A stretch of 64,000 bases of DNA from Chiloscyllium plagiosum (GCF_004010195.1 NC_057735.1:17766865-17830864); one strand, 5' to 3'. Shown: positions 5,931 to 48,504, counted from the stretch's first letter. The notes: a model not told the origin generated them from the sequence alone. Made by a program: numbers and translations.

Positions 5931-5961
5931 GAAATATTCTGGTACCTTTACATTCTCAAGA
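5931..5961 (+). CDS. Gla gene A exon 3, aromatic stack EIFWYLYILK
   Basis: ttttctttgcag acceptor; FWxxY motif; phase-1 GTATGT donor; 31 nt. Confidence 0.8.
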
Positions 5962-10158: not shown

Positions 10159-10314
10159 AGAATTCAAATCTAAAACACATTCTGGATAATGCAGCGGAAA
10201 TTCTTGAAGAGCAAATGAAAATTAATGAACTTAGAAAGGAGCTCACTGGAAAGAAACAAGAAATCAATGATTTAAAAGAACAACTCTTAGGAAAGTTAGA
10301 AAGTTGTATCGATG
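10159..10314 (+). CDS. Gla gene A exon 4, coiled coil (K)NSNLKHILDNAAEILEEQMKINELRKELTGKKQEINDLKEQLLGKLESCID
   Basis: ttatttcag acceptor; symmetric phase 1-1, 156 nt, open frame; I/L heptads; homologous to 32728-32912. Confidence 0.78.
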
Positions 10315-10488
10315 GTAAATAATAGGAAAGACATTTTACTTTACTTGTTATATTCTGCTAAGGCTGAATCAAACTATGAAGTTTATGTTAAATTTGTAAT
10401 GTTAAACTTCTTGATCAATAATGCTAATGTATGAATGATAAATGACATAAACTGAATGTAGTTTGGGCCTGTTTCATTTGTCTTTTAG

Positions 10489-17719: not shown

Positions 17720-18370
17720 ATCTTCCTGCTCCTCCACCCTTGAGCCCCACCCCTCCAATCGCCACCAGGACAGAACCTCACTAGTCCTCACTTATCACCC
17801 CACCAACCTCCATATACATCCTGCACCTCCACACACATCATTTACTGCATCCGCTGCACCCGATGTGGCCTCCTCTATATTGGGGAGACAGGCCACCTAC
17901 TTGCGGAACGTTTCGGAGAATACCTCTGGGATACCCGGACCAACCAACCCAACCACCCCGTGGCTCAACACTTCAACTCCCCCTCCCACTCCACCAAGGA
18001 CATGCAGGACCTTGGACTCCTCCAGCGCCAGACCATAGCAACACGACGGCTGGAGGAAGAGTGCCTCATCTTCCGCCTAAGACCCCTCCAACCACAAGGG
18101 ATGAACTCAGATTTCTCCAGTTTCCTCATTTCCCCTCCCCCCACCTTGTCTCAGTCCCAACCCTCGAACTCAGTACCACCTTCCTAAACTGTAATCTTCT
18201 TCCTGACCTCTCTGCCCCCACCTCCACTCCGGCGTATCACCCTCACCTTAACCTCCTTCCACCTTTTATCTTAGCCTGCTGGGCACACTTTCCTCATTCC
18301 TGAACAAGGGCTCATGCCTGAAACGTCGATTCTCCTGCTCCTTGGATGCTGCCTGACCTGCTGCACTTAT
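17720..18370 (+). mobile_element. Penelope-like element remnant (GIY-YIG region + pLTR)
   Basis: YIGETG...ERF GIY-YIG-like stretch; pLTR with hammerhead-like core at ~18300-18327. Confidence 0.75.
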
Positions 18371-19952
18371 CTGTAATTTAAACAACAATTCTGTTTCTTA
18401 TGAGTTTGACTTTAAAATTCCACAGTTGCAGTATTTCACTAATCTGTACAGATTATTAAAGAAATTATCCATTTATTCCACTAGATGTTCAATTCTTGTC
18501 TTTAATTTTGCTCTTTCAAGAAACTTACTTGTTTTGAGGATCAAGTGATTGTCCTAGGCTTTCCAAATTTCATCACAAGTATTTGTTGCTTCCTTTATGT
18601 CTTGATGAATTATAGTGACATTGGATATACTCCCAATTTTATTTTGAAGTGGATTTATTTGTTCAGCTTCCTGTTTACTATTTAGTCTGGAAACTCTGAA
18701 GTGCAGCATTGAAGTGCAGAAATGCATTGTAAGTGGTCCGGAGATGTGCCACGAGCATGCAGTGGGGCTGGTACAATTCAGATGCCAACATCCATGGCTG
18801 GTAGTGTACAGGTGGCTTCTGCCCATGCAGCAAGCATGAGTTGTTTGTGACTGCAGTCCAAGATGGAAGGTCAGAGGATTGAGTGGTGAACTGGAGTTGC
18901 CAGGAACCCACTCTGACTCTCATGTTGGGAATTGTCACTCTCCAGGTTCTATTCAGCTGGAATGGGGATATATGAGAAAGTGCCCATCATCAAGGCATCA
19001 TTCAGTAATAACAGCACCCTAACGCATCTGAATATATGTAAATAGGCTTCTCTTCACTTACTAGCGGAATTCTTGTATTGCTATTCAAAACTTGTTTGGA
19101 GAAATGGATCCTTCTTCTCAATTTCAAGAACCCAATTTCTGTGATCTCACCCTACTTTTTTCAGCTGTTTCACCAATGCCCACATTGTTCAGAGGCTGAG
19201 AACATATTTAAAATTGCTTTATGACCCTTGATTTCCCTTATTGTAACTGTGCCTTCTGGTGGGTACTTGCTATGATGGTGATGCTCAAGCTGAACTGTCA
19301 GCATTTTGCTTACTTCTCGCTTTCCCTGTCTGGAAGCTATTTTTAAAACAATTGTCCTCTTGCCCATGAGGGATTTCAGCTTTACACAGAGAACCTCCTA
19401 TGTCCATTCAGAGATGCAGCTGAGCCCCGGCTTGGGACTACTTCTGCAGGTCACCAGCACCCAATGCCGGTTGTAACTGCCTCTGATTCCAGGCTCCTCC
19501 CGACAATCTCCTGCTGTTGTATCTCTCTCACCAGGTTTGAAATACTTTGACCATTGACTGTACATTCTATATCTTGCCACAAGGTTTTCTTCTGTAAGAT
19601 TTATAAAGTTTCAGCCTTTCCAGCAGCAGACTGCCTGCAGCCCTCTTAAAGCTGTGTCTGAAAAAGTCTTCAGTCCTCTACCATTGCCAGTGTATAAGAA
19701 GCAGCTAAATGGAATCCTCACCATGCTATAAGATGTGTTGCCATCATTGCTGATCATGTTGTATGACCTACCTGGTACTGCCACAATCCTCTTTCTTGAT
19801 AGGGATCTATTAGACCTGCTTGGTGTGGTGTGGTCGAGGAAAGCCACTTGGTAATATAATGAGAAAAGGCTTTTGGCTTGCACAAGATATAGCTTATTGT
19901 TTTATTGCAACAAACAACAAATTCCATTGATATGATAGACATTGTCACAGAA

Positions 19953-22347: not shown

Positions 22348-22361
22348 GGTTAATTATTAAC
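22348..22361 (+). promoter_or_regulatory. Consensus HNF1 site in gene B promoter
   Basis: GGTTAATTATTAAC, exact consensus match, ~110 bp upstream of the ATG. Confidence 0.65.
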
Positions 22362-22469: not shown

Positions 22470-22542
22470 ATGAACATGAATATTATTTTGAAGTATGAGA
22501 CAATCTTTTTGTTTCTCTTTTGGTCCTCTCAAGTGAACTGCA
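22470..22542 (+). CDS. Gla gene B exon 1, signal peptide MNMNIILKYETIFLFLFWSSQVNC
   Basis: Aligns with gene A/C signal peptides (ILK...LF..Q); phase-1 GTAAGT donor at 22543. Confidence 0.75.
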
Positions 22543-23699
22543 GTAAGTAATTGTAATCATAACTCAAAATATAATGAGGCGATCTCTTAAACGCGGGACT
22601 TCTTTTACAAATCTCGCTAGTAATTGATTAATTAAAAGTAGTGCTGATATTAATTTTTGGTGTTGCTGATATGGCATATGACAAATATAACTATAACGTT
22701 CAGTTAACTTATGCAGTTCTAAAATGACTGTGCAGTAAGCAGGTCTAAAGCTGAAGGAAAATTATACTTCACATTTCACACAGACAGTCAATGTAGTTAG
22801 GTGACTAACATGGGACGATCGTATGAGAAAGAAAATAGTAAAGAGGAAAGTAATTCGTGAAAATAAGGTTTCCAGTCATTCTGATGCTCCATTTTGAACT
22901 ATACAAGATGTGACATTCACACGTTTTCCATTTTCTTTACCTAATTGGAGAAGTAATCTCATATCACTCTCAGTTATACCGGTTCTGGTTATATAGAGAC
23001 AAAATAGTGTTTAAAAAGTTCCTAGGTCATGCAAATAATTTAATAATATCATAAATAAAGCTACTCTCCCTGATGATGTTTATTTAGAAAAGGTATTCAG
23101 CTCTATTTTTCATTATCAGTGAATGAGGAGGAATGACTTTATAATTTGGGCCTCACACCTCTCTATCTGATTGGTACTAGACACAAACTAGTATACCTCT
23201 GGGACAATACCCCAAAAGACTTGGCCATCTGCCCTGCATTTTCAGAAAAACTGAGTATCAAATGAATTGTTTAGATACTTACTGAAGACTCATTTTGCTC
23301 AACGGCACCTAAATAAGATTTCAAGTGACAATACTTATGCTGAAATCATAATCTGTGTCCAGGAGCATCTGGGAACTGATTGCTTTTGATGGTTCTCAGG
23401 TTTTCTGAAGTCAGAAGTGGCAACTTGTTATCTGGTGACAGCTTTGCCGTAAGTGACAGCAGTAAATGCACATTTAAATTTAGTCATGGTACAGCAGGAT
23501 TAAGTTCTCTGTTAACATTATTTTCACTGGGACTTGTTTCATACTGGCCGTTAGAGAACCTAGGGATATGGAGATAGAGCAAAATAATGGAATTGAGGAA
23601 AAATGAAGTGAACCATCATGCTAATTTGTTGTCAGTCAGGCCTGTATTCTTGTTCCTATTTCATATAATCTTATGAAGGCCTAACCATGTTAGTTACAG

Positions 23700-25140
23700 A
23701 ACATTATCGGAACAATCCTGAGTCATGTGGCACCTGTGTTCAGTGGGCAATTATTTCTCAAAGAGGTAGAGATTACTTAAGGATAGTCAGTATGGCTGTG
23801 TTGGGTGAGATCATGTATAACAAATTTGATTGAATTTTTTGAGGAGTTTACTAGGTGTATAGATGAGGATAGTGCAGTTGACGTAGTCTATGTTGATGTT
23901 AGTAAGGCTTTTCACAAGGTTTCACATTGGTAGACTGGTTAAGAAGCTAAGAACCCATGGAATCCAGGGCAATTTGGCAAATTTGATCCAAAATTGGCTT
24001 AAGGTGATGGTTAATGAATAGTTTTGTTACTGGAAGCCTGTGTCCAGTGGTGTACCACAGGATTCATTGCCTAGGCCCTTGCTGTTTGCTATGTGCATTA
24101 GTAATATAGACCTGAATGTAGGAGTTATTATCAGTAATTTTTGCAGAGAATTGTTAGTGTGGTAAATAGTGAGAAGGAAAGCCTTAGACGAAAGATATCA
24201 TCGATGGGCTGAACAGTGACAATTAGGACTAATGCTGAAAAGTGTGAGATGATGCATTTTGGAAGGATGAACAAGGAAAGTGAATAAACGTTGAATGGTA
24301 GGACCTTAGGAAATACAGAGGATTGGCGTGACCTTGATGTGGATGCCCATAGACTTTTGAAGGCAGTAGGTCAGGTAAATAAAGGTCACGTTAAGAAGAC
24401 ATATGGGATATTTGCATTTATTAGTCAAGGCATTGATGCAGGAGCAAGGAGGTTATGATGAAGCTGCCTAGAATATTGACTAGGCCACAGCTAAAACACT
24501 GTGTGCAATTGTGGCCGCCTAACCCATAGGATGGATGTGATTGAACAGGCAGAGGTGCAGAGGAGATTCATCAGGATGTTAGAGTGATTCATCTCTGAAG
24601 TGAGATAGGCTGGGACTGTTTTCCTTAGGGGAGAAAGTGAGGACTGCAGATGCTGGAGATCAGAGCTGAAAATGTGTTGCTGGAAAAGCGCAGCAGGTCA
24701 AGCAGCATCCAAGGAACAGGAGAATCGACGTTTCGGGCATAAGCCCTTCTTCAGGAATGTTTTCCTTAGAGCAGACAAGGCTGAGTGGGGAACCTGACTG
24801 AGGTGTACAAGATTATGAGGGATTTTGATAAGGAAGGTAGGGAGAAATCTTTCTCCTTAGCACAAGATTAATGACAAGGAGACACATTTTTAAAAGGGAG
24901 CAGGAGGTTTAGGTGGTTCTGAGGAGAAATCTTTTCAGCCAGAGGTTATCAGAAGCTCACTGCCTGGAAGGGTGATAGAAGCAAGAACCCTCATAACATT
25001 TAAGAACTATTTAGATAAGCACTTGAAACATCATGGCACAGAATGCCTTGGACCAAGTGCTGGAAAATGGGATCAAAATAGATAGACACATGATGACCAT
25101 TGCTGAAGGGCCACTTCCCACTCTGTAAAAACTCTATAAC
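23700..25140 (+). mobile_element. Degenerate CR1 LINE RT
   Basis: [21 protein letters not shown] motifs with stops and frameshifts. Confidence 0.8.
24629..24757 (-). mobile_element. Penelope pLTR-derived short insertion nested in CR1
   Basis: 12-bp TSD tgttttccttag at 24617-24628 and 24758-24769; minus strand reads CTGAAGA-aGGGC ttat GCCC-GAAACGTC. Confidence 0.8.
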
Positions 25141-25233
25141 TCTGCAATTAAATTATTGCTAGAAACAGCAAAAGAAAGACTTTTTTCATGTGTGTTATGT
25201 GGATAAAGGTACTCTTAACCCACTATGATTTAG

Positions 25234-25394
25234 TGTTTTTGCAGAAATCACTTGCCAACACCTTCCTTTCCCGGATCCGGAGGGCTAATGACGGCCTGGA
25301 GGAACTACTACTTGATAATATGGAAAGAGAATGCTGTGAAGAAAAGTGTTTGCCAGAAGAGACTCAAGAGGTTTTGAGAAATTCTCCAAAACCT
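25234..25394 (+). CDS. Gla gene B exon 2, propeptide+Gla (M)FLQKSLANTFLSRIRR/ANDGLEELLLDNMERECCEEKCLPEETQEVLRNSPKP
   Basis: TAG acceptor; RIRR/AN furin site; Glu at 6,7,14,16,19,20,25,26,29; phase-0 GTAAGG donor. Confidence 0.9.
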
Positions 25395-27556
25395 GTAAGG
25401 ATTGCATCTAAAGCAATTCAATCTTAACAGCTGCTCAGCAGTATGAGTGGTCTAAAATGGGATTAGTATTTGACACTTAACACCCATTTCATTGGCAACA
25501 TGTAGAATATTATTGCCCAAACTAGCTGCTCAAAAGCATAATTACAGGTTACTTCCAGTGAAGCCTAGCCTACTTAACATGATTAATAACTGTAACTTTT
25601 GTAATGTAGCTCATCCTAATTCCATATTATAGCATCTAATAGTTCCTCATGACCCTCTTCTTCACTCCCACACCCTCTCATAATTGACACTAACAGAGTG
25701 TTCACCTGATCTGACTCAGGAACCTAGTTACCTGACAGTTGTTGTGCCAATAACAACAACCTGACTTGCCTTTGTATTTGACATACTTCTCAAAATTCAG
25801 GCTGAAATAACTCCACAGATGTTGGTATCTTCATCACCAAGTCACCCTTTATTTAACATGTGGAAAGTCCTTGTCCCTGGCACAGCCTTATCAGAGTCAG
25901 TACCCAGAGTAAGAGAATTCTGACCCTCTTCTTTTCATCTGTCAGCCAGAGCTCCCTGATTGGACAAAATCAATAGTCCCAATCAAGGAACTCATATTCT
26001 ATGAGGTCCAGCTGGCCGGCCTCATTACAATCACTACACAGGCCCAATTAATTTAGAAGATTCAGGACCACGTCCAGGTAGAAAGGGGAAGACAGGTTAT
26101 GATTTGACATTCTCAGAGTGTTCAAATAGACTGCACTCCTAAATTTCAAGACCATAAACAAAGGAAGATGAAGATTCCAGTAAACATGCCAATATTTCTA
26201 TTTATAAAGTCAGAGTCTGAAAGTTACTATTGACAATATTAATAAACAAATGTGTGATATGTTAGCATAAATCCCTTTCTATTGCGTTTCAACCGAGGCA
26301 TCAACCATTTAAAGCAAACTGATTATACTAAATTAAAGAAGTCCGCAGAGAAACTTTAAATGTTAATATACATGTTAATGTCTTATTGTAATATTTGTAG
26401 CTTAGTTACATGACGATTCAGGAACATAAACATAACTGCAATCTTACTGTCATCATATTTATTTATGTTTTAAATGTTTTTAATATATTTCGTAATGGTG
26501 GGCATCTTTAATTGACATTTGCTCCTAATAACCCAGTGCTGGACCACTTATCTCTTACAACAGATCCATATGTGGAGTTGATTCATAAGAGAGGCTTACA
26601 GTATATATGAGGACAATTTTATAAATTCAATGAAATATGTACACCACTCACACTTATTGAGAAATTCTAGAGCAAGAGTTGTTGATGGTGAAACCATTGG
26701 GCTGAATTTTCTCAGTCTCTTAATGATGAGGCAATGATGGGAAGTTTGGGAAATACAACAAAAGTGAAAAGTTGAAATTCTGGATGTTGAGAAAACAGGG
26801 TCCAATTTTTCACTTGAGGTTTCATAGCAAGTTGAGAATCTTGCTCATGAAAAGTGAGGGGCCTATTGAATGCATTAATGAGCATTAACATTTAATTATT
26901 TTCTAATCTCATCTCATTTTTGTGCAAGTTGTTTTTTCCCAGTTGTCAGGGAGAAGTTAGACAGTGCCACTTCCCAATTTAAAGGACCTGGTAGCTGCAG
27001 TTCACAAGCACCTTCACCTTCTTGGCAGCATTCCCTCAGCATGCTCCTTGGGCAGCAACCATCTGAACCTTCTGTCCATGGAAGTCAGCAATCACTTCAT
27101 CACTTCACCATGGCACAGCCTTAACTAATTTACAATATGGTTCAGCGTTTAAATACAGCACTTTGGAGTTCACTGACAAATTTTGCTCCAATGCAGCTGC
27201 CATGTCATTTTGTGCACAGGGAATAGGTTGCGTACTATGGCTAATAAATTGCTTTCTGAAGCAATTGTGCATACTTTATGAGGTGATCAGTGTAAAATTG
27301 AGTGAGAAAAGTTTCTATGCCTCACAAAGAATGACTCTCTGTGAAATGCCCCAAAATTGATACTTAGCCAAATCTAACATTGAAGGGATCTGTACTGTGC
27401 TGTAATGGAAATTCAGCCTATTGTTTTCAAGTATGTGGAATTAATCAGTAGGACTCCAAAATAATACTGCTCATTTGTAACATCCCTCCTATTATTGTTG
27501 AGAAGCATGTGTCTATTTGTGTGCTGCACGAACTAAGCTAAGATTTGTTTTTGCAG

Positions 27557-27581
27557 GAACAAACTTGGATTACGCCCAATG
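27557..27581 (+). CDS. Gla gene B exon 3, degenerate aromatic stack EQTWITPN
   Basis: ttgtttttgcag acceptor; 25 nt as in F7/F9/F10 exon; Trp retained; GTATGT donor. Confidence 0.75.
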
Positions 27582-28947
27582 GTATGTTTTTTTAAAAAAT
27601 CAATTTGATCCATAGATTATGCTTTGAGTACGTTTATTATTGTTTATCCTGCACTAAAACAACAGGCAGTGAAAATTTATACAAACACATTTAAATATTC
27701 ATATTTAGTACTAACTGTCACACTGCTTGAATTTAACCCATTTGGAATTATTAGTGAGGAGACAATTAATGCAGTTATGGATTGGCACCAAAAGCCGGCC
27801 ATGTCCATATTCGATGAAAGAATCATGAACTAGTGCTGGATTTCAAAATGGCTTGTAAAATGAGGAGATGATCTCTGATGCCTTTCTATAGGTTATGGTA
27901 CATAAGACAGCCTGAATATGGACAGAGCAAGAACAAATTCAATAGCATAACTAAGAGGTTTGATGGGATGTTAGTGGCAGAATGTGTTAGCAAAGACATG
28001 GCAGAAAACATATCCATAAACTCGCCAGTCAGGACCGGTCAATTCTGGCCCTTCATGCCCATCTCTTGAAGTGTAACTGCACTTGCAGGACCTTAAAATT
28101 AAGGCCACAACAACCCATTACAAGCATCTTATAAATATTGACAGAGAAGCATGTGATCTTGCTGATATTCAAAATCACAAATTAGCATTCCGTTGATCCC
28201 TAAAATGACTTAGGTTTACAAATTGCACTTCCAAGTACATGTAGCAGATATTACTTACATATTGGAATGGGATCACCTTTTTTTGCTGTTGCTGTGTAAA
28301 AATAATGGAACTTTCTTCCTATCAACGCTGTGGATACACCTGCCTGCCAACCATGCATGGAGTATAGTCAGATAAGAAGGTAAGTGATTATCACATCTTC
28401 AAAGACAATTAGCGATGAGCAATAAATGCTGGAAAAGCCAGTGATATCCACATTCCACAATCAAATAAATAAAATAAATCCTGTCAGAGAACCTTTTCTG
28501 AAATTCCTTCCTTCCAACTGAACAAAATATGCTTTGTCCATCCGCATTAAAGATATAATGATGGATCATGGGGAAATGTTCCTTGCTATGTTGCAGATAT
28601 AGTGTTTATATTTCTCATAGTTTAATGAGTCTCTCCAGGTTGAAAATTGTTTGTTTGTAATTCTTTCACCAGAATGTAATATGAGCAAAGTGCAAAGTAT
28701 TGGAAAGTGGAGCTTCTAAAAGATTATTATTAATCATATGTGGAGTTAAAGAGGGTTGGTTGCCATTTTATACAGATACAGCCTGTAATTGTCATATTTT
28801 GCATGACATCTTATACTAACCCCAATTTGCATTGCATGAATAGTGTAATGATTTCTATGTTTTTTACTTACTGTAAAGATAAACTTGTTAAAAAAATTTA
28901 GCTGAAATTACAATGTCCCTTTAACACAAAGTGTCTTTTTTGTACAG

Positions 28948-28983
28948 GCAGCGTTAGACCTCTCCCCTGTTTTCTGAGCCAAT
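28948..28983 (+). CDS. Gla gene B probable exon 4, linker (G)SVRPLPCFLSQ
   Basis: cttttttgtacag acceptor; GTAAGT donor; 36 nt, phase 1-1. Confidence 0.55.
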
Positions 28984-29039
28984 GTAAGTTTGTAATACAA
29001 TTCACAAATCACATAAATCTATGATTGAAAAACACGATT

Positions 29040-30365
29040 CAGATTGCTGGGCCTCTTGCTGAGATATTTGATAGTCACAGCTGAGGTGCCGGAAGACTGA
29101 AGGTTGGCAAACGTGGTGTCACTGTTTAAGAAGGGTGGTAAAATCAAGCCAGGGAACTATAGACCAGTGAGCCTGATCTCGGTGGTGGGCAAGTTGTTGG
29201 AGGGAATCCTGACGGACAGGATGTACATGTATTTGGAAAGGCAAGGACTGATTCGGGATAGTCAACATGGCTTTGTGTGTGGGAAATCATGTCTCACAAA
29301 CTTGATTGAGTTTTTTGAAGAAGTAACAAAGAAGATTGATGAGGGCAGAGCAGTAGATGTGATCCATATGGACTTCAGTAAGGCGTTTGACTCGGTTCCC
29401 CATGGGAGACTGATTAGCAAGGTTAGATCTCATGGAATACAAGGAGAACTAGCCACTTGGATACAGAACTGGCTCAAAGATAGAAGACAGAGGGTGGGGG
29501 TGGAGGATTGTTCTTCAGACTGGAGGCCTGTGACCAGTGGAGTGCCACAAGGATCGGTGCTGGGCCCTCTAATTTTTGTCATTTACATAAATGATTTGGA
29601 TGTGAGCATAAGAGGTACAGTTAGTAAGATTGCAGATGACACCAAAGTTGGAGGTGTAGTGGACAGCAAAGAGGGTTACCTCAGATTACAGCAGGATCTG
29701 GACCATGGGCCAATGGGCTGAGAAGTGGCAGATTGAGTTTAATTCAGATAAATGCAAGGTGCTGCATCTTGGGAAAGAAAATCTTAGCAGGACTTATACA
29801 CTTAATGGTAAGGTCCTAGAGAGTGTTGCTGAACAAAGAGACCTTGCAGGTTCATAGCTCCTTGAAAGTGGAGTTGCAGGTAGATAGGATAGTGAAGAAG
29901 GCATTTGGTATGCATTCATTTATTAGTCAGAGTATTGAGTACAGGAGTTGGGAGGTCATGTTGCAGCTGCACAGAACATTAGTTCAGGCACTGTTGGAAT
30001 ATTGCGAGCAATTCTTGTCTCCTTCCTATTGGAAGGAGGTTGTGAAACTTGAAAGGGTTCAGAAAAGATTTACAAGGGTGTTGCCAGATAGGTTTAGGGT
30101 GAGAGGGGAAAGATATAAAAGAGACCTAAGGGGCAACTGTTTCACACAGAGGGTGGTACGTGTATGGAATGAGCTGCCAGAGGATGTGGTGGAAGCTGGT
30201 GCAATTGCAACATTTAAGAGGCATTTGGATGGGTATATTAAATGGGAAGGGTTTGGATGGATATGGGCCGGATGCTGGCAGGTGGGACTAGGTTGGGTTG
30301 GGATATCTGGTCGGCATGGACCGAAGGGTCTGTTTCCATGCTGTACATCTCTATGACTCTATGAC
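29040..30365 (+). mobile_element. CR1 LINE (HER1-like) RT, 5'-truncated
   Basis: [37 protein letters not shown] motifs; (ctatga)n tail. Confidence 0.92.
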
Positions 30366-31719
30366 TAAATGGAATTGTTGATTTTTCTTGGAAGTAAGAT
30401 AAACACAATAGCTGAGTAACATAAATATCATAAATATCATTATGGTACAAAAGCACTGTAATGAAATAATTTGAGTAGTTATGATAGATTACCTACTACT
30501 TTTCAGGGATATTGGCCCTAAAATATAGCCACAAAGCAGGAAGCAAACCTGGCTGACAGATCTATTAGCCAGAAAACGTGTTTCTCATGAGGGTGGATAC
30601 AATTTAAGTTTTTGTCAAATTAATTTGCCAGCTGAATTAGGAGCTGTTGGGTGGAGGGGTGGGGAGGAAGAGGAGATGGGGACGGCTAGGGATTGGAGTG
30701 AACATGAGTCAGATGTGATGCTAGGGGTGAAGTCAAACATCAAAAGGGATAGGAGTTGAAAATCTTGGAAGGCGAGGTCAGTGGTGGAGGTGAATGGGGA
30801 GGGGGTAACATCACCAATTCAATTATATGGGGCAAGGAGCCCAACAACTAGATACTGGAAGGGTCCCAACCCTGTCTTTAAATGTGAATGCACTAATCAC
30901 GTAGGAGATGAGCTTGGAACCCAGTTAGTGATACCAAGTTTGGCCAGGAGCTGCCAGCAATGCACAAGCAACAAAGGCAAATGGCAACAATGTTAGGACC
31001 TGCTTTTGCCTTGCAAAGGAGAGAAGACTGCTCTTCTCTGAGGGCTAGCAGCCTCATTAAGAATAAAGCTGACCAAAAGCCAAATATAAGGTCAAACACA
31101 TGAAATGGTGCCCGATCTTACAGCTTCTGAAGATCTCTAAAATTAAAAAAATAGATTATTTTCTTCTGCCTTTGAACAGAAACGATGTGCACTAATGTTC
31201 ATTAGTCTATACAGATTCAGCAGATTCAAATTTGAGTACTTGCTTCTGGCCTACCTGACCTGTTAAGAAGTGCCTCAGGGAGCTTAGTGGGCTGTTAACT
31301 GGAGGCAAATTGCTTCCCCATTGCCCTCCCACCTCCTGTCCTCCCATTGAAAATTGTATTGTGCTTCAGAAGAGGTAACATCCAGTGTCACACTCCAGGA
31401 ACTTAATTTTCAAATTATGCATCCCCTTGACCTTCAGCTTCACTGGTAGTTGAAAACCCTGTGACATTTCATCTAGGAATCATTGAGAAGATGGGAATTT
31501 AATTTTAATTTTCTGGCAGTGATACTGCTGACACCTCCAGCTGATATTCAGCTGATTCAAAATAGCGTTGAGTTCAAGCTCAGGACTTACCTGGGTTACC
31601 GTCCCTCCTGTGGGGCTAATTATTTGCGCTGCTATTTCAGAACACATTCTCTATGTCTTGTTGGTCTGTCTGGAGAGCACATGGTACATTTCACAGTCCA
31701 AAGACTCTAACAGAGTGAA

Positions 31720-32440
31720 GTGCAGTGGGATTTGTGAGAGCATTCTTGTGCATGAAACAAGAAAAGTTAGCATGAGATGTAGCAAGTAATTAAGAAGGCA
31801 AGTGGAATTTTGACTTTTATTGTTGGGGTGGGGTGGTTTGCATTTTAAAATAAAACTGTACAAAATGTTGGTGAGGTCCCATTGGAACATTGCGTACAGC
31901 TTTGGTCCCCGTATTTTAGAAAGGATATATTGGCTTTGAAGGCAGTTCAAAACAGATTCACAAGGCTGATTCCTTGGATGGAAGGGTTGACTTATCAAGA
32001 ATGGATAAACAGGTTAGGCCTTTATTCATTAGACTTTAGAAGAAGGAGGGGTGATTTATGGAAACATACAAGATTCTGCAGCAGTTTGACAAGGTAGATG
32101 TTGAGAAGATGTCTTCACTAGTGTTACATAGTTATTAAATAAGGGGACACTCATTTAAAGCAGAGATGCAAAGGGATTCCTTCTTCCAGAAGTGAATGCC
32201 TTGAATTCTTTACCCCAAAGACCTGTGGAACCAAGAAAACTGAAATTGTTTAAATGCGATGTGTATGTATTTAATATGTTTAGATATATTCCCAATTTGG
32301 ATTTAGTGGGAAGTTGAGGGTTATGAGGAAATGGCACAAAAGAGTGGTTGAAGTCTGAGGCAAATCAGCAAATGATCTTATAGAATGGTGGGACAGGCTT
32401 GAGGCACCAAATAGCTACTCCAGCTCTTACTTCTTATAAT
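31720..32440 (+). mobile_element. Degenerate CR1 3' fragment
   Basis: EHCVQLWSPYFRKDI, RFTRLIP motifs. Confidence 0.8.
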
Positions 32441-32727
32441 CTTATTTCAAGAGACATTTACTTCTTATTCCATCTGCCTTTGTTTATTGTTTGTGAGTTA
32501 ACTTGGAAATATCCTCAAATTTTAACTATTCAAGCACTATCCTGATGATAATTGTAAATAAATGAATTTTTACAAGCAGAAAACAATATTGCCTTGTCAT
32601 GGAATATGTTATAAGAAACACAATCACAATTTTAATTTAAACATTGTGAACTTGAATTAGCTTAATACATATTCTAATCCTGCATTAAAATGGCATTGTT
32701 GTTTAAACTCTTCTTTCTTGTTCATAG

Positions 32728-32912
32728 CACGCTGTGCAAAGGACAATCTGAAAGAGGTCTATTCCATAGGAAAGAAAATCTTTGAAAAACAAAAGGAAGT
32801 TGTCTATCTTCATCAGCAACTGATCCATCGCAAGTCGTACATTTTGTACCGGATGAGCAATCTATTTCAAAGCATAGAACGTTTGGTTTGGTTGATATCA
32901 GATCAGCTTTAA
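32728..32912 (+). CDS. Gla gene B terminal exon, coiled coil (S)RCAKDNLKEVYSIGKKIFEKQKEVVYLHQQLIHRKSYILYRMSNLFQSIERLVWLISDQL*
   Basis: ttctttcttgttcatag acceptor, phase 1; heptads align without gaps to gene A exon 4; AATAAA at 33007-33012. Confidence 0.72.
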
Positions 32913-35669
32913 ATGATCTGCATATTGTTTATTTTGAATGTGAATATGTTATTAGTGGGTCCATGCACTGGATAATGCTTAGAAAACATTGAAATTTCAC
33001 CTTTGGAATAAAAAAATTAACTTTTTCTCAAACTCTTTTCAACTTGTTGTAATAATATTGCAGCAACTTTAAACATTTTAGCTGTAAGTCTACAATAAAA
33101 TTCTTGTCGTACTTTTGCAATGTTTTTAACTGCAAAAGTTAAACCAAAATAATTATAGGAGTATTTTATACAGAACATACAGCATAGAAATAGACTGTTC
33201 AGCTCAATTGACCCATGCTGATATTTATGCTCCACATGACTGTTTTGTTATCCCATTTCATCAAATCGGGTGAGCGTAATAACAACAACTTGCATTTATC
33301 TAGCATCTTTAATAAAGCAAAAGATTCCAAGATGATCTACAGGAGCATTATCAAACAAAAAGTGACACAACTGTATAAAGACAAATTAGGACAGGTGCCC
33401 AAAAGGTTGCTCAAAAGCATTGGTTTTAAGGAACATCTTGAAGGAGGAAAGTTCAGTAGAGGAGCAGAAAATCTAAGAATCGAATTCAATGGTTTTGGGC
33501 TTCAGCAGTTGAAGTCAAGATCACCAGCTAAGGAGTGGGTAAAATCATGGTTGTGGAAGATCTGGGAATCAAAGGAATCTTGGAATATTTTTGGGCTGAG
33601 GGGTAATCTGAAATTGGAAAGAGCCAGGACACATGAAATAATCTGAAAGATGATAATCATGGCAGATGGTGGAATTTGCATTCAATAAAAATCCAAACTA
33701 AAGAGTCTAACGATGACAATAAATCAATTGCCGATTGTTGGAAAACCCATCTGGTTCATTAATGTTCTTTAGGGAAGGAAACTGCTATCCTTACCTCGTC
33801 TGGACTATATTTGACTCCAGACCTTTCTGGGCAATTAGGGATAGGCAATAAATGGTCACCAAGCCTGCGATGTCCTCAACCCATGAATGAGGTCTTGCTT
33901 AACTGAAGACCAAATGTAGTTTAGTGAGCACAGGAAGAATAAGAAGTGAACAGGACTTGTGTGAGTTAACCTTCAATTTTTTTCTCCCTGATATTTCCCT
34001 GGCTTTGGGGAAATGCATATATCATTCTAAAGACTCTCTGGGAAGAGGTCTTTCCTGAATTCCCTTTTGAATTTAGTTTTGACTTTCTAATACATATAGC
34101 CCTCAGTTTTGGATTTCTCAATAAATGGAAGCATTATCACTGGGTGGAATCTTTCATTTTTTTGGGCTAAGTCCAACTTGTATCAAATTCTTTGGTGTGA
34201 TTCTTGCCATGAGGCCGAGTGAGAATTCTCACTGTACTTTACCAAATGAGTCTCATTAACTACTTATTCCACCTAAAGTCATCCTTCATATCTGAACTTA
34301 TCACATGCCATTCCCAGAACAACTTTCTACTCACTGGATAGCAATCAAGAGCCCAGCATCCCTGGCACCTGCTGCTCTGCACTTGGATAAGCACTGACTT
34401 GAACCTGAACTTGTCGTGGAATGGCGCTGTGATTCTCTGACAGGGGCAAGGAGATCCTGGTCAAGGGATTGGTGCAAAGGAGTCCTTATCCACGATGGAC
34501 TGGCAATGGAGGGTGTCCTGCTCATCCAAGGTCGCTCCTTGGGTCAGTGCCATTTCTATGCTACAGAGGAAGTGACAGTAGTGCCATAAGGTGGTCAATG
34601 ACCTTTTCCACTCCACCAGAGTAAGTGCTACACTTTTCTGTCTGTCACCTCACACTCACTCTGTCTTTGCTACTGGACTCCACCACCTACCAAGGTTTAT
34701 CACGTACCAATCACACTATTGTCTGCAGCATTTTCCCTTGCCAGCTCTCACCCCTCATCCCAACATTCCACACCACTAATCCTACACACTCTCTGCACTG
34801 CTTCCTCAATCCCTGAAAACCCTTCACCACCTTTTGAACTATCATTAACAGTTGTGCCATCCACTTGCATCGCATTCAACCCCTCCGTTCCTTCATTCAA
34901 GTAGAAAACAGCCCTTGATAGGGGAGAAAGGTGCTGGACGTGTGGACAAGTGCATAACGTTTGATTCCTCAACCTTCAGAGGAGAGGACTAGCACTGCCC
35001 CTGCATGCTGAGACATCAATGTCCCAACAACCGTCTAAGTACCACTCTTCATTCCATTGCAGGCTTCACAGTAAATCCGCTATCTGTGTAATACATTGTG
35101 TACGACTCCTAACCACTAGTTGTAAAGCCTTCAAACTCTTTTGTCTTGAGGTACTACCGGTATATCCACAACCACTTTGGAGAAATAGTCAGCTCCCCCA
35201 GAAACGTCTTGCCCAACCTCGAAGGATGAGAATACAGAGGTGTCAGAGGAAGCAGCAACAAAGCAGCCTTCTGCACATTCTACCAGCGCAGATGTTGACA
35301 CTTCGATGGGAACATTCATCTTGGGGGCACAATCTAGTGAGAACCTAACTATGACAGCTCCACAGCTGCTGGAGGGAGAAACAGCCCAAGTCACTGGTAC
35401 TTGGATGGAGACCAGGTCGCTACTCAGCTGCAGGCAGGAGATGACTCTGTCGCATTGGTAATTAGGAACTTTGTCCACAAGCACAGGGAGGAACAGTAAG
35501 CAGCAGACAGGAATGTGGGGCACAATAGCCCTTATTGCTCAGAAGCTACAACAGTACACAAGTCAAGTAACCAGCTGTTTCTTTCAATGAACAGGTTGGT
35601 AGCTGCCATGGAGAGCTAGGATCAGTGCCCTCAGGGTTTGCTGGAGAGACATATATACCTATACTCCAT

Positions 35670-41711: not shown

Positions 41712-41725
41712 GGTTACTTATTAAG
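41712..41725 (+). promoter_or_regulatory. HNF1-like site in gene C promoter
   Basis: GGTTACTTATTAAG in a block shared with 2740-2775. Confidence 0.5.
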
Positions 41726-41860: not shown

Positions 41861-41924
41861 ATGACAGTAATTTTGAGCTACGGGATAATATCATTGCTTC
41901 TCTTTGGCTGTCAAGCAAATGACT
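41861..41924 (+). CDS. Gla gene C exon 1, signal peptide MTVILSYGIISLLLFGCQAND
   Basis: aaaATGa start; hydrophobic core; phase-1 GTAAGT donor. Confidence 0.82.
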
Positions 41925-42828
41925 GTAAGTATCAATGTTTACCACAGTATCAATGTTTCTCAGGATAATTCTTCACAGAGTCTGATTTTAGACATAGACC
42001 CCTTGTTCCCTCCGTTGCTCCCATATACAGTGCTGAGTTAGTCCCTGTCTGACAATATGTTGATGATCTGATTTGTTCTCTACCACTTTGACTTTTGTAT
42101 CCACTGCCCACTGACTGTCGGTGATTGCCACACTCAATTTAATATGTTCAGTTATAGCCGCCTAGTCTGTGACTTTTTATTTCATATTTTGTTGTATGTT
42201 AAGGGTTTTTCCACAGGGTGTGGATTTTTCACTTTAACGTATTAATCTTTTTTACAAACTAAGTGCTTATTTTCTACAGATGGACTGGAATAAACAACCC
42301 TCAGGTCTTCATTCTCAATCATGAATTATCTGTTTCTCCTCTTCGTACCATCCCTTCAGACACAGTTGAGATCAAGGAATGTGATCATAATACTGTTTCT
42401 TAAAAAATAAATTTTTGTGTAAGTGCATTTACGTTTTGTGTAAAAACATTAATGAATACAAAATATTCATACACCTTTTGCTGGTTTTATGTGGCATGAT
42501 AGTACTGATATTTTGAGTGGTTTCCATTAAGGTAATTGGATTATGACATTTAGATTGGAAAAATGGCAGTTTTAATGCTATCCACTGGGTGTAAACTGGA
42601 GTGATATGTAGTTAAAATATCCCTGATTATTTATCCATACTAGAGCTAGTCACAATTTTGACTCAAGCTTCAGAAAGGGTGCTAAGCAGCCCAGACAAAT
42701 GCACAGGGTCCTCACTGACATGTTCAGACTACAGGTGAAATAAGTCATCCACCTCTGACTGTTAATTTTCTCCCTGGCCTGAGTAAGTGAGATACTGTGG
42801 CTCTTTCGCCAGGTAAATATTCAAGTGA

Positions 42829-42954
42829 AAAATGTGTTGCATAAGCCCGAAACGTCGATTCTCCTGCTCCTTGGATGCTGCCTGACCTGTTGCGCTTTTC
42901 CAGCAACACATTTTTCAGCTCTGATCTCCAGCATCTGCAGTCCTCACTTTCTCC
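42829..42954 (+). mobile_element. Penelope pLTR-derived short insertion
   Basis: 14-bp TSD aaatattcaagtga at 42815-42828 and 42955-42968. Confidence 0.8.
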
Positions 42955-43918
42955 AAATATTCAAGTGAGAAGAGGATCATGGATCAGATGAGCCCACTTT
43001 TATTTTCTTTATGAGGTTGGGAGGACTGCAAAGGTTCCTCTGGGCTCAAGGCAGGTTGAATTCTCTCTTGCTCCGGGCTCCCTCCTTCTTCTGTCCTTTG
43101 AGATCCTCCTAGAATTTCTCTTGATATATGTCCTTGACTGCCAGCAGTCAACCATGGATCACTTCCTGAACAAAAGCAGAAAATTCTGCTGTGAAGAAAA
43201 GTCATATTAAAAAGTTAACTCTGACAGATCTGCTGAGTGTCTCCAAAATTTTCTGGTTTTGTTTCAAATTTCCAGCACCTGCTTTTATATGGGCCACTAC
43301 TTTCTGCAGAAATAGGTGTGAAGTGGATCTGATAGCCTATTCATGAGTTAAAATTGCTGGGGCCTTTTTTTTCTCTAATAGCGACTTACAGTCTACCTGC
43401 TAGCAACTGCCCCCTAATTAAAACCAGAGCTTGGACGTATGAATGATTCCAGTCCATCTGCTAAGAGCAAATACTTGGTTTATTAAAGAGAAAAAAATTT
43501 TAAAGTGAAACTTCCACACCACACAGAAAAAAATTAACACACAATAAAATATGAAATAAAAGGTCACAGACCAAGCTGCTACAGTGAAACAGATTATACT
43601 GAATGTGGCAATGTTTGACAAGATTGTGGAGAAAATGCTTACTTGTGTTTTTTTTTAATTTGAAACTATCTCTGCAGCTGAGCAAGGCTAAATAATTATC
43701 AATTTACTTACTATAGGATTTAACCACATCAGGCCACAGTACTTTAGCTCAAATAATTTTTGAATGATTTTGCAAAATTCATCCCTTAATATTTTGACAA
43801 ACTTCTGTGGCTGGTCTATTTCCTGGGAAATTTAAAACCAGCAACTCCAGTAAAATTCCAGCTTAGAGTCTTGACTCTTATACTTCAAAGAAATGAAAAA
43901 ACTTGCATCTATTGAGTA

Positions 43919-44130
43919 AGGAAATGTGTTGCTGGAAAAGCGCAGCAGGTCAGGCAGCATCCAGGGAACAGGAGAATCGACGTTTCGGGCATAAGCCCTT
44001 CTTCAGGAAGAAGGGCTTATGCCCGAAACATCGATTCTCCTGTTCCCTGGATGCTGCCTGACCTGCTGCGCTTTTCCAGCAACACATTTCCAGCTCTGAT
44101 CTCCAGCATCTGCAGACCTCACTTTCTCCT
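43919..44130. mobile_element. Palindromic Penelope pLTR insertion
   Basis: 85-bp inverted arms 43920-44004 and 44007-44091; 13-bp TSD catctattgagta. Confidence 0.85.
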
Positions 44131-44271
44131 CATCTATTGAGTATGTTTTGCAACTTCAAACTATTACAACAGACACTTCACACAACAATATTATCATGGT
44201 ACAATAAAATATCACATAAAATCTACACAGGCACCTGATTTATTATTGCATTATTATTCAAAAATATGGAG

Positions 44272-44435
44272 TATTTTTACAGAAATCAGCTGCTGCACAG
44301 TTCCTGTTTCGATTTCGTAGAGCTAACAATTGGAGATTTGAGGAGCTTAAGTCTGGGAATTTGGAAAGAGAGTGTATAGAAGAAACCTGTTCCAAAGAAG
44401 AGGTCCGAGAGATTTTTGAAGATGATCAAAAAACT
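44272..44435 (+). CDS. Gla gene C exon 2, propeptide+Gla (L)[54 protein letters not shown]
   Basis: Canonical Gla domain with Glu at 7,8,15,17,20,21,26,27,30,33; RFRR furin site; GTAAGG donor; acceptor is GAG. Confidence 0.92.
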
Positions 44436-45501
44436 GTAAGGACCAAGTTTATTCTTGTCTAACTCTCACCGCTCCTTTCTCATTTTCACATAAATAATTA
44501 CATAACTGAGAAGGTCTCAGATGTCCAGCAGAGTGAGCTGGCTGCAATATGGAACTTGCTGTTTCCATTGCTTATTGTGAGTAGCTCTAGAAACTCACTG
44601 AACTATTTGTCACCACACTGCCATATGGGAATAGGTAAAGATGGCATTGACTGATAAAGAATCCTAATTTTTTTCTGTGGTGTGGGTATGCTTTGGGTTG
44701 ATTTCCTTCTCTCAGTGCTAAGTAATTACTTAGCTCAACAAGACCTCCACATCAAGTCTGAAACTATGGTCGTTCTGTGCCCTGTTGCTGCATCCTCCGA
44801 TTTATTTCTGCAGAAAACAGTTTTTATTGCACATTTTCAAATAATTTATTCTAATCTACTGAAGCCATTTCCTAAGGCAAACCACCATGAATGGTGTTGG
44901 GATCCTGCCCTACATAGAATAATAATTGATGAAAGGCACACAGGCAGAAAAGTGCTGTCTGTTTGCATTTCTGTTTGGAAAATGAAGGTCTAAATGCCCT
45001 TACCTTTTGATTTAAAATATTAAACAAGAAACATAATCATTTTCAACAAAGCAGTTAGATTTAAAATGCCAACTTCATTAAGAATTGTGAAGTGAATGTA
45101 ATTGTTGACTAATTGTTTGAGGAGAGCAGATTGTATTCTAATCTGATCAATGTCTGCTAAACTATGTACAAGAGGGCACTTAGTATGAAAACCGTAGTTG
45201 TAGCATGTAAAGATATTGCACTTTATCTCAAGTTAAAAGTAATCTTAAACAGTGCTAAAAACCACACAACACCAAGTTATAGTCCAGCAGGTTTATTCAG
45301 AAGCACTAGCTTTCAGAGTGCTGTTCCTTCATTAGGTGGTTGTGACAGATAATGCTGCTCCTTCATTGGGTGATGTTCTAAGCGCCAACCATGTAACAAT
45401 TAAATTGGAGTTGGCCTGAGACTGTGTTTAATTAGGAACAATTGATTTTTGGCCTTAAAAGTACAAAATTAATAATCTTTTCTTTATTTCCTTTCTTCAA
45501 G

Positions 45502-45526
45502 GAAATTTTCTGGGACTTCTATACAG
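45502..45526 (+). CDS. Gla gene C exon 3, aromatic stack EIFWDFYT
   Basis: 25-nt exon, FWxxY, phase 0-1, long pyrimidine tract. Confidence 0.88.
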
Positions 45527-46183
45527 GTATGCTTTCTCTAATACATCACAATTTAAAGTATTGTGCTTATTTAGACCAATCAGGTTCTGACATCATAAAA
45601 GCTATTTTCCTGACCATGTGATTAGTTTAATAAAGTAGTTCGAAGGTAGTTTCATTTCAGAAAGAAAAAAATAAAGACCTCATGATGCCTCAAAGCACTT
45701 TGCAATTGGTGGCACAGTTTTGAGAAGTATTTTACTCAGATCAGCCTCCCGAAAAATACTCCCTAAAAAAGTGATGAATGAACAGTGATGAATGGTTTTG
45801 GTAACTTTAACTAAGGATCCAATATTTACCAGTACTCCAAGGGTAATTATGCTGCCCTTTATAATAGTGTCACAGGATCTTTTGTGTTCACTTTAAACAG
45901 CATCTAGGATCTCAGTTTAATGTTGCAACCAAAAGCCATTACCCTTTACAGGTTGCATGCCCTCAGAACTGCATCAGATTGTCAGCCTAGCATTTGCGTT
46001 CAGGTATCAAGCGTGAGTGACACCAAGAATTCTCTTTTCTGTATTCTAAAGGCCCAATTGGTATTATGTGGCCTAACAAATCGAATAATATTAATGAGTG
46101 AGAGTCAATGTCCTGAAACAAACAAAAAACACAGAATGTGTTGGAGATATTCAGCAAGCCTGGCTGCACCTGTTGGGGAGAGA

Positions 46184-46214
<31 letters not shown>

Positions 46215-46824
46215 CGAGAGAGAAACAGAGTTAATGGGCTGATTTTTTTACCAAAAATTGTTTAAGACCATAAGATGATAAGACACAAGAGCAGAAATAG
46301 ACCATTCAGGCCATCGAGTCTCTCCGCCATTTGATCATGGCTGATATGTTTCTCAAACCCATTCTCCTGCCTTCTCCTCATAACCTTTGATCCCCTAACT
46401 AATCAAAAACTTATATACCGCTGTCTTAAATACTCTCAATGGCTTGGAATCCATGACCTTCTGCAGTAATGAGTTTCAGAGATTAATCACCCTCTGGATG
46501 AAGTGTAAATTTTGTGACTTCAGGTCATTCTGCTATAATGCACGTTTCGTTAATGCGAATTCGCTATAATATGATTGACGAATTGGAGACACTGTTTCCA
46601 AAGTGCAAACTTTTAAAGCGTGTACTGGCTATAATGCGTTTCTGGCCCCATTAGTTTAAATGGTGCTGCTATTATGCAAATTTTTAATAACACGGGATTG
46701 CATCAGACCAGAACTGCCGCATTATAGCAGAACCGACTGAATCAGGAAGGATTTCTATTTGCAAGCTCCAGGAGATTATCTCACACAATTGTCTGCAATG
46801 GCTTCCTCACTCGTGTGGAAGTCA

Positions 46825-48055
46825 ACTAGGAGAAAGGTGAGGACTGCACATGCTGGAGATCACAGTCGAGCATGTGGTGCTGGAAAAGCACAGCAGGTCA
46901 GCCAGCACCGAGGAGTAGGAGAATTATCGTTTCAGGTATAAACCCTTCATCAGGAATGAGGCTAGTGGGTCAGGGGGCTGAGAGATAAATGGGAGGGAGG
47001 TGGTGGGGCTGGGGGAAAGGTAGCTGAGAATGCAATAGGTAGATGAAGATGACAGGTCAGAAAGGAGGGTGGAGATGTGGTCTCTACATTGGGGAGACAG
47101 GATGCCAACTTGTGGATCATTTCAGAGAACATATCTGGGAAACCTGCACCAACCAATCTCACAGTCACGTGGCTGAACATTTCAATTCCTCCTCTCACTC
47201 CACCAAGGACATGCAGGTCCTGGGCCTCTTCCATCTCCAAACGCTACCCACACGATGCCTGGAGGAAGAACGCCTCATTTTCTACCTTGAGACCCTGCAA
47301 CCACGTGGGATTAATGAGGATTTCACCAGTTTCCTCATTTCCCCTCCGCCCCCACCTTATCAGAGTCCAAAGCCTCCAACTCAGCATCACCCTCATTCCC
47401 ATCAAATCATCTTCCGCCACTTCCACCACCTACAAACAGACCCCACCACAAGAGATATATTTCCCTCCTCAGCCCTACTAGCGTTTTGGAGAGATCATTC
47501 CCTCCGCGACTCCCCTGTCAGGCTAACGTCTCCACCAGCCCTCAACTCATTCCGTGCACCTTACCCTGCTACCACAGGAAGTGCAAACACTGCACCCACA
47601 CCTGCCCTTCACCTCCGTCCCAGGCACTAAAGGATCCTTCCACATTCAACATAAATTTACCTGTACCTCCACCAATGTCATCTATTGCATCCTTTGGTCT
47701 CCTCTCCATTGGGGAGACAGGATGACAATGTGGGTCATTTCAGAGAACATCTCTGGGACACCCATACCAACCAACCCCATAGCCCTATGGCTGAACACTT
47801 CAACTCCCCCTCCCACTCTAACAAGGACATGCAGGTCCTGGGCTTCCTACATCGCCAAACCTAACCATGCCTGGAGGAAGAATGCCTCATCTTTCGCCCT
47901 GGGACCCTGCAACCACTCGGGATCAATGTGGATTTCACCAGTTTCCGCATTTCCCCTCCCCTTCATCCAGGCATTGGGTGGTAAGGGAGTGGCGATGGAG
48001 GAGGCCCAGGACCTGCATGTCATGAGGGAGTGGCGATGGAGGAGGCCCAGGCTTT
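46825..48055. mobile_element. Rearranged Penelope-like remnants
   Basis: Two GLYIGETG..HFREH-like GIY-YIG segments; inverted pLTR at the left end. Confidence 0.75.
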
Positions 48056-48504
48056 TTTAATGACAACTTCAGGGGTATTTTTGTTCTATTTGGGTAACAT
48101 TCAGAAAGTGTAAAAAATGCATAAGCGTTTGTCAGCACATTGAACCACATTTTAAATGCTCCTTTCATGGTTAACAAGCCTAGACATGATAATTGAACAT
48201 AGAGGCAGAGACTCTTCCTCTCGACTATATGATCTCCTAGAAGACAGACAAGAAACGATTAAGAAATAGCAGATGATGAATTACATTTTCCAACATTAAT
48301 GGTCAAATGCAGAACAGATTCAAACCAATTCCCTTACCTATTACTTTAGACTTATATCTGCTGGTATTGGCATTCAAATTTTCTACTCTACATGCAGAAA
48401 AATCTAAATAAACTGTTAGAGCAATTTCTGCTAATTCTAGAAATGCCGTGCCTTATATGATGCCAGATCAAAATAAAAACTCCAATTTAATTTCTCTTTT
48501 TCAG

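Follow-up and report, generated by a model that had tools for sequence, protein, structure and literature searches.

A Gla domain followed by a predicted coiled coil: gene B of a tandem Gla locus in Chiloscyllium plagiosum and its chondrichthyan relatives

What kind of protein is encoded by a gene that begins like a clotting factor and ends in a heptad-patterned helix? The question is raised by a 64,000-nucleotide stretch of Chiloscyllium plagiosum DNA (GCF_004010195.1 NC_057735.1:17766865-17830864), referred to here as the window, whose plus strand carries three tandem Gla genes, A (Gla and coil), B (Gla, linker and coil) and C (Gla-EGF-EGF), and then a DUF4504 gene that we take to be C1orf74. 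The initial annotation had described gene B, at 22470-32912, as a divergent copy of gene A that arose by an old duplication under selection for the heptad pattern. We find that gene B belongs to a Gla-plus-coil family that is real, old and apparently uncharacterised, and that apparently represents a new domain combination.

The five exons named previously are confirmed, with GT-AG junctions, phases of 1/0/1/1, and one open frame of 159 codons. All exons and motif sites given below are on the plus strand. The coding part of exon 1 (22470-22542) encodes a putative signal peptide, recognised by its position and hydrophobicity, and ends in a phase-1 donor; 23 of its 24 residues are the same in whale shark. 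Exon 2 (25234-25394) contains the propeptide residues F-16/A-10/L-6/R-4/R-1, a furin site, and the Gla domain with nine core Glu, the C17-C22 pair and an extra Cys18. Exon 3 (27557-27581) is an aromatic-stack exon of 25 bp, phase 0 to 1, the size and phase of gene C exon 3, which has decayed to TWITP. An N-x-S sequon spans its junction with exon 4 (28948-28983), a 36-bp phase 1-1 linker with a Cys in an LPC motif. The coding part of exon 5 (32728-32912) encodes a six-heptad amphipathic helix or coiled coil and the stop codon, and the first AATAAA 3' of the stop, at 33007-33012, is a candidate polyadenylation signal. The order of domains is signal peptide, carboxylase propeptide with furin site, Gla, short linker and six-heptad helix.

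A search with the last exon among 10 candidates returned only XP_043572565.1, a predicted C. plagiosum model of 159 residues that is letter-identical to the gene B frame. This model is automatically named 'coagulation factor X-like', despite having no EGF or protease domain, and Gla is the only Pfam family above cut-off in gene B. An EGF-like Cys pattern was absent from the plus-strand frames of B introns 3-4 and of 8.7 kb downstream, and tblastn with 19 relatives, nhmmer and a Cys-pattern scan revealed no hidden stalk or EGF exons in the B introns or downstream. The 36-bp exon was considered as a relic of EGF1, because a phmmer match ran into EGF1 of factor X, and this was rejected, since the 6 linker ends tested all scored no better than shuffled sequence (p = 0.14-0.81). 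The stalk between head and coil is rich in Ser, Thr and Pro in most relatives, and Chiloscyllium and Rhincodon have the 12-residue Cys-bearing exon alone. Stalk length is very variable across the family, and the Rhinoraja protein (P0016) has a three-fold repeat within it.

Relatives of gene B and the coil

Proteins with both Gla domain and coil were found in C. punctatum, Rhincodon, two Scyliorhinus, Cetorhinus, Heterodontus, Heptranchias, Hemitrygon, Pristis, Leucoraja (two), Rhinoraja, Narcine, Mobula and the chimaera Callorhinchus. Fifteen species are thus represented, with a coil in 19 proteins or protein segments. The whale-shark orthologue of B also has 159 residues, with 73% identity, and Leucoraja has two near-identical B-type genes (P0014/P0158). 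A profile search of 8000 candidates picked out, besides 12 chondrichthyan proteins, a frog factor VII and an unnamed fragment; five of the query sequences, themselves cluster representatives, were missed by it. The exhaustive search was read for the best 150 of 269 matches at E ≤ 0.001, and the coil was checked in few of the unnamed lower ones. All coil-bearing relatives retrieved in these incomplete searches are chondrichthyan, and the family is likely to be restricted to cartilaginous fish, judging from the sequences in hand.

The occurrence of this coil in sharks, rays and a chimaera means that the last exon of B is not a chance intronic reading frame, which the initial annotation had thought unlikely. 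The window has 159 acceptor-opened phase-1 frames of at least 50 residues; seven of them have six hydrophobic residues at one heptad position, and two of these seven are free of proline. Only the last exon of B is also charge-rich (0.36, compared with 0.14).

Are the coils of A and B homologous? The ungapped alignment of A exon 4 with the last exon of B from NLK onward does contain 12 identities in 45 positions, as counted by hand, and the matched heptad pairs I/V, I/I, I/V, L/L, I/I and L/L are each seven residues on from the last. The best ungapped score is 45, compared with 41 for a slip of one heptad and 36 for reversed B. With 5000 shuffles in each test, the alignment is significant against full shuffles (p = 0.0004) and marginal against heptad-preserving ones (p = 0.032 with B shuffled, 0.031 with both). 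At p ~0.03 the pairwise alignment only just survives the comparison with shuffled coiled coils that the initial annotation had set for it, and is too weak as stand-alone proof of homology, which is carried by the family profiles. A profile of the 14 non-A coils matches, in a register anchored by hand, three of the four A-type coils (p = 0.0047, 0.010 and 0.0027, heptad-preserving shuffles), the three Chiloscyllium A coils being close kin and not independent tests. When Chiloscyllium is removed from the non-A profile, p for the matching A-type coils is 0.0013-0.0027. The Mobula A coil does not match the non-A profile significantly (p = 0.18). In the reverse test, the A profile gives p < 0.05 in 10 of 15 non-A coils, with C. 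plagiosum B itself at p = 0.058. Intermediate forms can be seen in the coils of Narcine and Scyliorhinus. Taken together, these comparisons support a common ancestry of the A and B coils.

AlphaFold2, with a 15-row alignment, gives B one helix from 101 to 158, with a predicted local distance difference test score (pLDDT) of about 89-96 for residues 111-159, low values elsewhere, and a mean of 66.5. For the chimaera protein it predicts a continuous high-confidence helix from 107 to 174. Hydrophobicity recurs with a period of 3.52 in the family and 3.54 in B, compared with 3.6 for a lone helix, and the family periodicity power is 3247 at 3.5, 2286 at 3.6 and 910 at 3.67. The maximum at 3.5 rather than 3.67 favours a coiled coil over a lipid-binding 11/3 helix. 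In the register assigned by hand, the family hydrophobic fraction is 0.89 at d, 0.82 at e, 0.41 at g, 0.33 at a and 0.02-0.09 at b, c and f. These values indicate a wide a-d-e face rather than a leucine zipper. Such a face, when its d residues are β-branched, usually accompanies bundles of more than two helices, and a bundle of three to five chains would be more likely than a pair.

The last exon of B has no transmembrane stretch, the maximum 19-residue Kyte-Doolittle mean being 0.75. No Pfam family is above cut-off for any coil in 16 proteins, the best PDB matches to the coil are unrelated helices at E of 0.02-0.07, and an Atlas search with it gave no usable feature match, only generic long-helix structures. 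A fold search with the chimaera model found nothing at E ≤ 0.001, and its top 15 rows are all Gla-containing clotting-factor chains. An assignment of the coil to the COMP/thrombospondin or matrilin type, which it resembles, was dropped, as neither Pfam at E up to 1 (16 proteins) nor the PDB searches reported it. Between the two Chiloscyllium B coils, all six changes within the six heptads are at the outer b, c and f positions (p = 0.006), and none is at core a, d or e. In the comparison with whale shark, 9 of 16 changes are at b, c and f, which is not significant (p = 0.20).

Origin of gene A and the place of B among Gla proteins

The proposal of an old A/B duplication under heptad selection agrees with the coil homology, the heptad constraint and the conserved coding exons, but a simple duplication does not account for the front of A, which is C-type. 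The promoter, exon 1, intron 1 and exon 2 of A are colinear with gene C, with 67-74% DNA identity, while A and B have DNA similarity only in short exon patches. In a tree of the fronts (25 rows, leaving out Mustelus and a second Mobula record as of uncertain type), 14 B-type rows are on one side of a branch with support 88/88. The A-type fronts group by lineage with the C-type fronts, those of the sharks together (97/97) and those of Mobula together (94/91); the tree does not resolve the position of the chimaera front. Constraining the A, B and chimaera fronts to one clade was rejected by the approximately unbiased test (p-AU 0.0015). Since A is colinear with C and the constrained tree is rejected, the old duplication holds for the coil only. 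Nor is B well described as the divergent copy, as B-type fronts were found in 13 species and A-type fronts in 3, among the proteins retrieved. In the coil tree, which has long branches and should be treated with care, the A-type coils, four in all, group together (93/87) beside Narcine. The coil exon thus goes back to a single origin, and the head of A is C-type, by way of chimerism or repeated gene conversion. The phase-1 junction after the Gla domain is thought to have built the clotting factors, and this cluster shows exon swapping at that intron.

How does B compare with known Gla proteins? Factors VII, IX and X and proteins C and Z share with it the signal peptide, carboxylase propeptide, basic cleavage site and a Gla domain that is N-terminal and has nine core Glu. 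Its aromatic-stack exon of 25 bp and its phase-1/0/1 introns also follow the clotting-factor gene layout. However, B has no EGF domains, activation peptide, or protease or pseudo-protease; its stack has decayed and its C-terminal part is a coiled coil. It is only the Gla match that underlies the database names 'factor X-like', 'factor IX-like' and 'protein Z-like'. Gene C and its type have front exons and a promoter motif in common with A and B, but carry, behind the phase-1 intron, two EGF exons in place of the coil exon. PRRG1-4 resemble B as short Gla proteins without a protease (a likeness from an Atlas lead only, score 0.83), but B lacks a transmembrane segment and has an amphipathic heptad helix where PRRG proteins have a cytoplasmic tail. 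Collectins, tetranectin, matrilins and COMP consist of a head and an oligomerising coiled coil; here the likeness is one of design only, a weak head made multivalent by a Cys-flanked coil, with no sequence match. Gas6 and protein S have established bridging or regulating roles. They are also secreted non-protease Gla proteins, which bind phosphatidylserine according to PMC6220832, and the whale-shark orthologue of B is automatically named Gas6-like. Unlike them, B has no EGF array and no laminin-G domains, hence no known receptor-binding part, and the 159-residue protein ends after the coil. Matrix Gla protein, osteocalcin and GRP are likewise small, secreted and vitamin K-dependent, and present in cartilaginous fish according to PMC8006282, but differ in Gla type, position and exon plan, and the passages of that paper covered here describe no coiled coil in them. 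By its domain and propeptide, then, B is a predicted member of the clotting-factor-type Gla superfamily, and is not factor VII, IX or X, protein C or Z, Gas6 or protein S, a PRRG protein, or Mgp or Bgp.

A published description of a Gla-plus-coiled-coil protein was not found in a literature search covering few subscription journals and no supplements. The word 'coiled' occurs 0 times in the passages of PMC9643190 covered, and six accessions or locus identifiers gave no papers, supplements being outside that search. The set of vertebrate Gla proteins is small and well catalogued, and Gla plus coil adds a new architecture to it that has been hidden under automatic 'factor X-like' names. This matters when clotting factors in chondrichthyan genomes are counted by name.

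The Gla head and possible functions

The Glu and Cys residues are numbered here as in factor X, from an ungapped match to solved factor X chains. Gene B scores 34.6-35.6 bits with Pfam Gla (cut-off 27), its propeptide and Gla domain match factor X with E = 2e-10, and it aligns to the propeptide and Gla chains of factors X and IX in the PDB. The initial annotation was correct that B keeps the furin site and nine core Glu and has lost most of the aromatic stack. The site is RIRR, followed by AN, with Ala42 as mature residue 1; Glu 6, 7, 14, 16, 19, 20, 25, 26 and 29 are retained, together with Cys17 and Cys22, and positions 40-44 are TWITP, in which only W41 is left. All 15 B-type and chimaera rows retain the propeptide residues F-16, A-10, L-6, R-4 and R-1, which mark the clotting-factor type, and the post-cleavage EE pair. 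The nine core Glu are complete in nine of these rows, and the remaining six are without Glu14. FWxxY is intact in eight of the 15 (batoids, Heptranchias and chimaera) and is lost in all seven rows of a shark clade (support 97/94) that we take to be the galeomorphs; the S. canicula model may be mis-spliced in this region. An N-x-S/T sequon just after the decayed stack is common to all seven galeomorph rows. Because FWxxY is lost across the whole clade, with a common sequon, the loss is old and shared, not recent rot.

The damage in gene A is the reverse of that in B, as FWxxY is kept, but the furin site and Glu 6/7 are deleted. The exon-2 region is also altered in both C. punctatum A copies, though not in Mobula A, where the head is intact. 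B, gene A and the C. punctatum copies have an extra Cys beside Cys17 of the Gla loop (25317-25340, + strand, in B). This residue and two linker cysteines could allow inter-chain disulfides.

Where might gene B be expressed? A perfect HNF1 consensus site at 22349-22361 ends 109 bp upstream of the B ATG, and it is the only exact match in the window, where 0.02 were expected and 2 of 100 shuffles had one. HNF1-like sites with two mismatches are found upstream of gene A (2753-2766) and gene C (41712-41725). With up to two mismatches there are six matches at four places, compared with 2.36 expected; six of 100 shuffles reach six, so this loose count does not by itself reach significance. Three of those places, however, correspond to the aligned promoter position of A, B and C. 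PMC2781434 gives the same consensus and describes HNF1alpha as liver-enriched. The perfect site at the B promoter suggests liver expression of gene B, and so a plasma protein made there.

What, then, would be the function of the B product? We propose, as a reading that falls somewhat short of probable, that it is a secreted, carboxylated, furin-processed, non-enzymatic oligomer that binds Ca2+/phosphatidylserine surfaces by avidity, shielding or bridging them. It would be made in the liver under HNF1 control and enter the secretory path by its signal peptide, with the propeptide recruiting γ-glutamyl carboxylase, and a furin-type convertase would free the Ala1-Asn2 N-terminus. The C-terminal helix would bundle several chains, and nearby cysteines may lock the bundle. 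Several Gla heads on a flexible glycosylated stalk could then bind Ca2+/phosphatidylserine by avidity on activated blood cells, dying cells or vesicles. Having no protease, EGF or receptor-binding domain, the oligomer would occupy or cross-link surfaces, as a shield competing with clotting factors or as a membrane bridge. In the galeomorph heads, including that of B, which lack the stabilising FWxxY helix, either avidity would compensate or the ligand would have shifted. Gla proteins do bind anionic phospholipids and calcium, as stated in PMC6220832. B would allow a direct test of whether avidity can substitute for the aromatic stack in Gla-membrane binding, and nature may offer in it a template on which multivalent probes or blockers of phosphatidylserine could be built.

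Several observations weigh against this proposal. HNF1 is also active in kidney, gut and pancreas. Position a in mid-coil carries G, Q, H/R or K, polar residues that set it apart from a standard zipper, and the coil is unclaimed by any Pfam, PDB or Atlas family. C. plagiosum and C. punctatum B differ at 9 of 61 last-exon residues, compared with 1 of 74 front residues (Fisher p = 0.005), and such fast change hints at a partner-binding surface on the coil, outside our model. In the head, the pLDDT is 50-59; omega-loop position 4 is Gly where factor X has Phe, L31/R32 replace F31/E32, and TWITP stands in the aromatic stretch. The F/YW dipeptide is among the most conserved Gla positions and is likely to stabilise the fold, according to PMC9669250, so the B head is probably less stable or binds differently. 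It may not fold like a clotting-factor Gla domain.

Could the loss of the stack mean that the ligand is mineral rather than membrane? All seven galeomorph rows lost the stack and kept Glu 6/7, Glu 16-29 and the propeptide, as expected if Ca2+ binding outweighs the membrane-binding fold. The protein would then be a mineral chaperone, a carboxylated oligomer on calcium-phosphate nuclei or apatite in plasma or calcifying cartilage, like matrix Gla protein or osteocalcin, and PMC8006282 presents the shark Mgp and Bgp Gla domains as calcium-binding regulators of mineralisation. We consider this unlikely, as the B Gla domain is of clotting-factor type, at the mature N-terminus, and not of Mgp/Bgp type, FWxxY is kept in the eight batoid, Heptranchias and chimaera rows, and the promoter motif favours liver or other HNF1 tissues over cartilage. 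The complementary decay in Chiloscyllium, where A keeps FWxxY and lacks the furin site and Glu 6/7 and B is the reverse, points in another direction, that of an adaptor whose coil pairs with a specific partner, be it the A product, some receptor or a plasma protein of fibrous type, and whose Gla head brings this partner to membranes; a single hetero-oligomer might contain both A and B as subunits. Their coils are equal in register and length, their promoters share a motif, the a positions are polar and the outer positions change rapidly. However, A-type coils were retrieved in 3 species compared with 13 for B-type fronts, the intact Mobula A head means that the complementarity is not general, and no partner domain was identified, which makes the adaptor less likely still.

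Tandem duplication, head swapping and fast surface evolution, all seen here, are typical of defence genes, and the head-stalk-coil layout would also suit an innate-immune collector, an oligomer that, much like collectins with their sugar-binding heads, recognises anionic microbial or viral envelope surfaces and agglutinates or opsonises them. This seems improbable, because in PMC6796875 the factor VII light chain owed its antibacterial activity to EGF1/EGF2, the Gla domain being inactive, and B has no EGF; that evidence bears more on gene C. The light chain in question was made in E. coli and hence presumably uncarboxylated. Finally, B might be a decaying duplicate in this lineage, or untranslated, its frame persisting by inertia. 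The stack and most of the stalk are lost, new Tyr, His and Val residues appear at outer coil positions in C. plagiosum, and the deletion in gene A looks damaging. Yet the 159-residue length and 73% identity are kept in whale shark, the congeners differ at a single front residue and at none of the core a, d and e positions, the decayed stack is common to the seven-row clade (97/94) with its shared sequon, and the perfect HNF1 site is present. We regard decay as very improbable.

The avidity-binding oligomer remains our preferred reading of B, in which gene structure, motifs, family range, the helix with its heptad period and the promoter motif are observed, while liver expression, carboxylation, cleavage, oligomerisation, ligand and physiological role are inferred. 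A wider extension of it is doubtful, namely that these proteins form an old chondrichthyan plasma class, predating the chimaera-elasmobranch split and not known from bony vertebrates, in which multivalent Gla heads on a coil hub, with head exchange and mixed A/B oligomers, would make a protease-free phosphatidylserine regulator (an anticoagulant shield or dying-cell bridge), and in which gene C could survive as a model of the light-chain module out of which the clotting factors arose.

Neighbouring genes and repeats

Gene A has four exons. Exon 1 (2875-2971) encodes a C-type signal peptide, exon 2 (5013-5149) is a Gla exon that is 24 bp shorter than that of B and lacks the furin site and Glu 6/7, and exon 3 (5931-5961) is a 31-bp aromatic-stack exon with FWxxY intact. 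Exon 4 (10159-10322) encodes the coiled coil homologous to B exon 5, with a Cys-containing motif at its end. A possible phase-1 donor at 10312-10320 (+ strand), with 7 of 9 consensus matches, lies three codons ahead of the stop, so the coil might splice onward; no exon downstream of this donor was found.

Gene C begins with a signal peptide in exon 1 (41861-41924, from the modelled ATG). The propeptide, furin site and an intact Gla domain (Pfam Gla 60.5 bits) are in exon 2 (44272-44435), and exon 3 (45502-45526) is a 25-bp aromatic-stack exon with FWxxY intact. Exon 4 (48505-48618) encodes EGF domain 1 (Pfam EGF, E = 5e-7), and exon 5 (53825-53955) encodes EGF domain 2 (Pfam hEGF, E = 2e-5) and the stop. 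The model has a single stop, at its end, and no protease domain follows EGF 2. Gene C (41861-53955, + strand) is in effect a free-standing clotting-factor light chain, with relatives in Mobula, Heptranchias, Mustelus and S. torazame. A database protein of 259 residues (P0022) has a Gla-like front, several EGF-like repeats and, by eye, an end Cys motif like that of the last EGF of gene C, and may be a distant relative. Gene predictors have joined A1, A2 and B into one model in C. punctatum, and B and C in Heptranchias and Scyliorhinus torazame, which implies the same gene order in these species. The C1orf74/DUF4504 gene is a single open reading frame at 61460-62272 (+ strand; Pfam E = 6e-73), near a CpG-rich stretch at about 60000-60450, and is a useful synteny anchor in other vertebrates.

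Gene B intron 4 contains, as a passenger, a decayed reverse transcriptase fragment of the long interspersed nuclear element type (29101-30356, + strand; RVT_1 E = 7e-27 for 29101-29718). Decayed retroelement pieces lie in introns and spacers at this position, at 23781-24580 and at 17744-18187; they include a stretch of B intron 1 similar to the reverse transcriptase fragment, with 63% identity, and GIY-YIG-like fragments below cut-off. Downstream of A, 18369-18695 and 19828-19950 (+ strand) match gene C intron 4 (51624-51945 and 52739-52852) with 65% identity, order and strand being kept, and have no further copy in the window. These stretches may be what is left of a complete C-type duplicate around A, or they may be old repeats.

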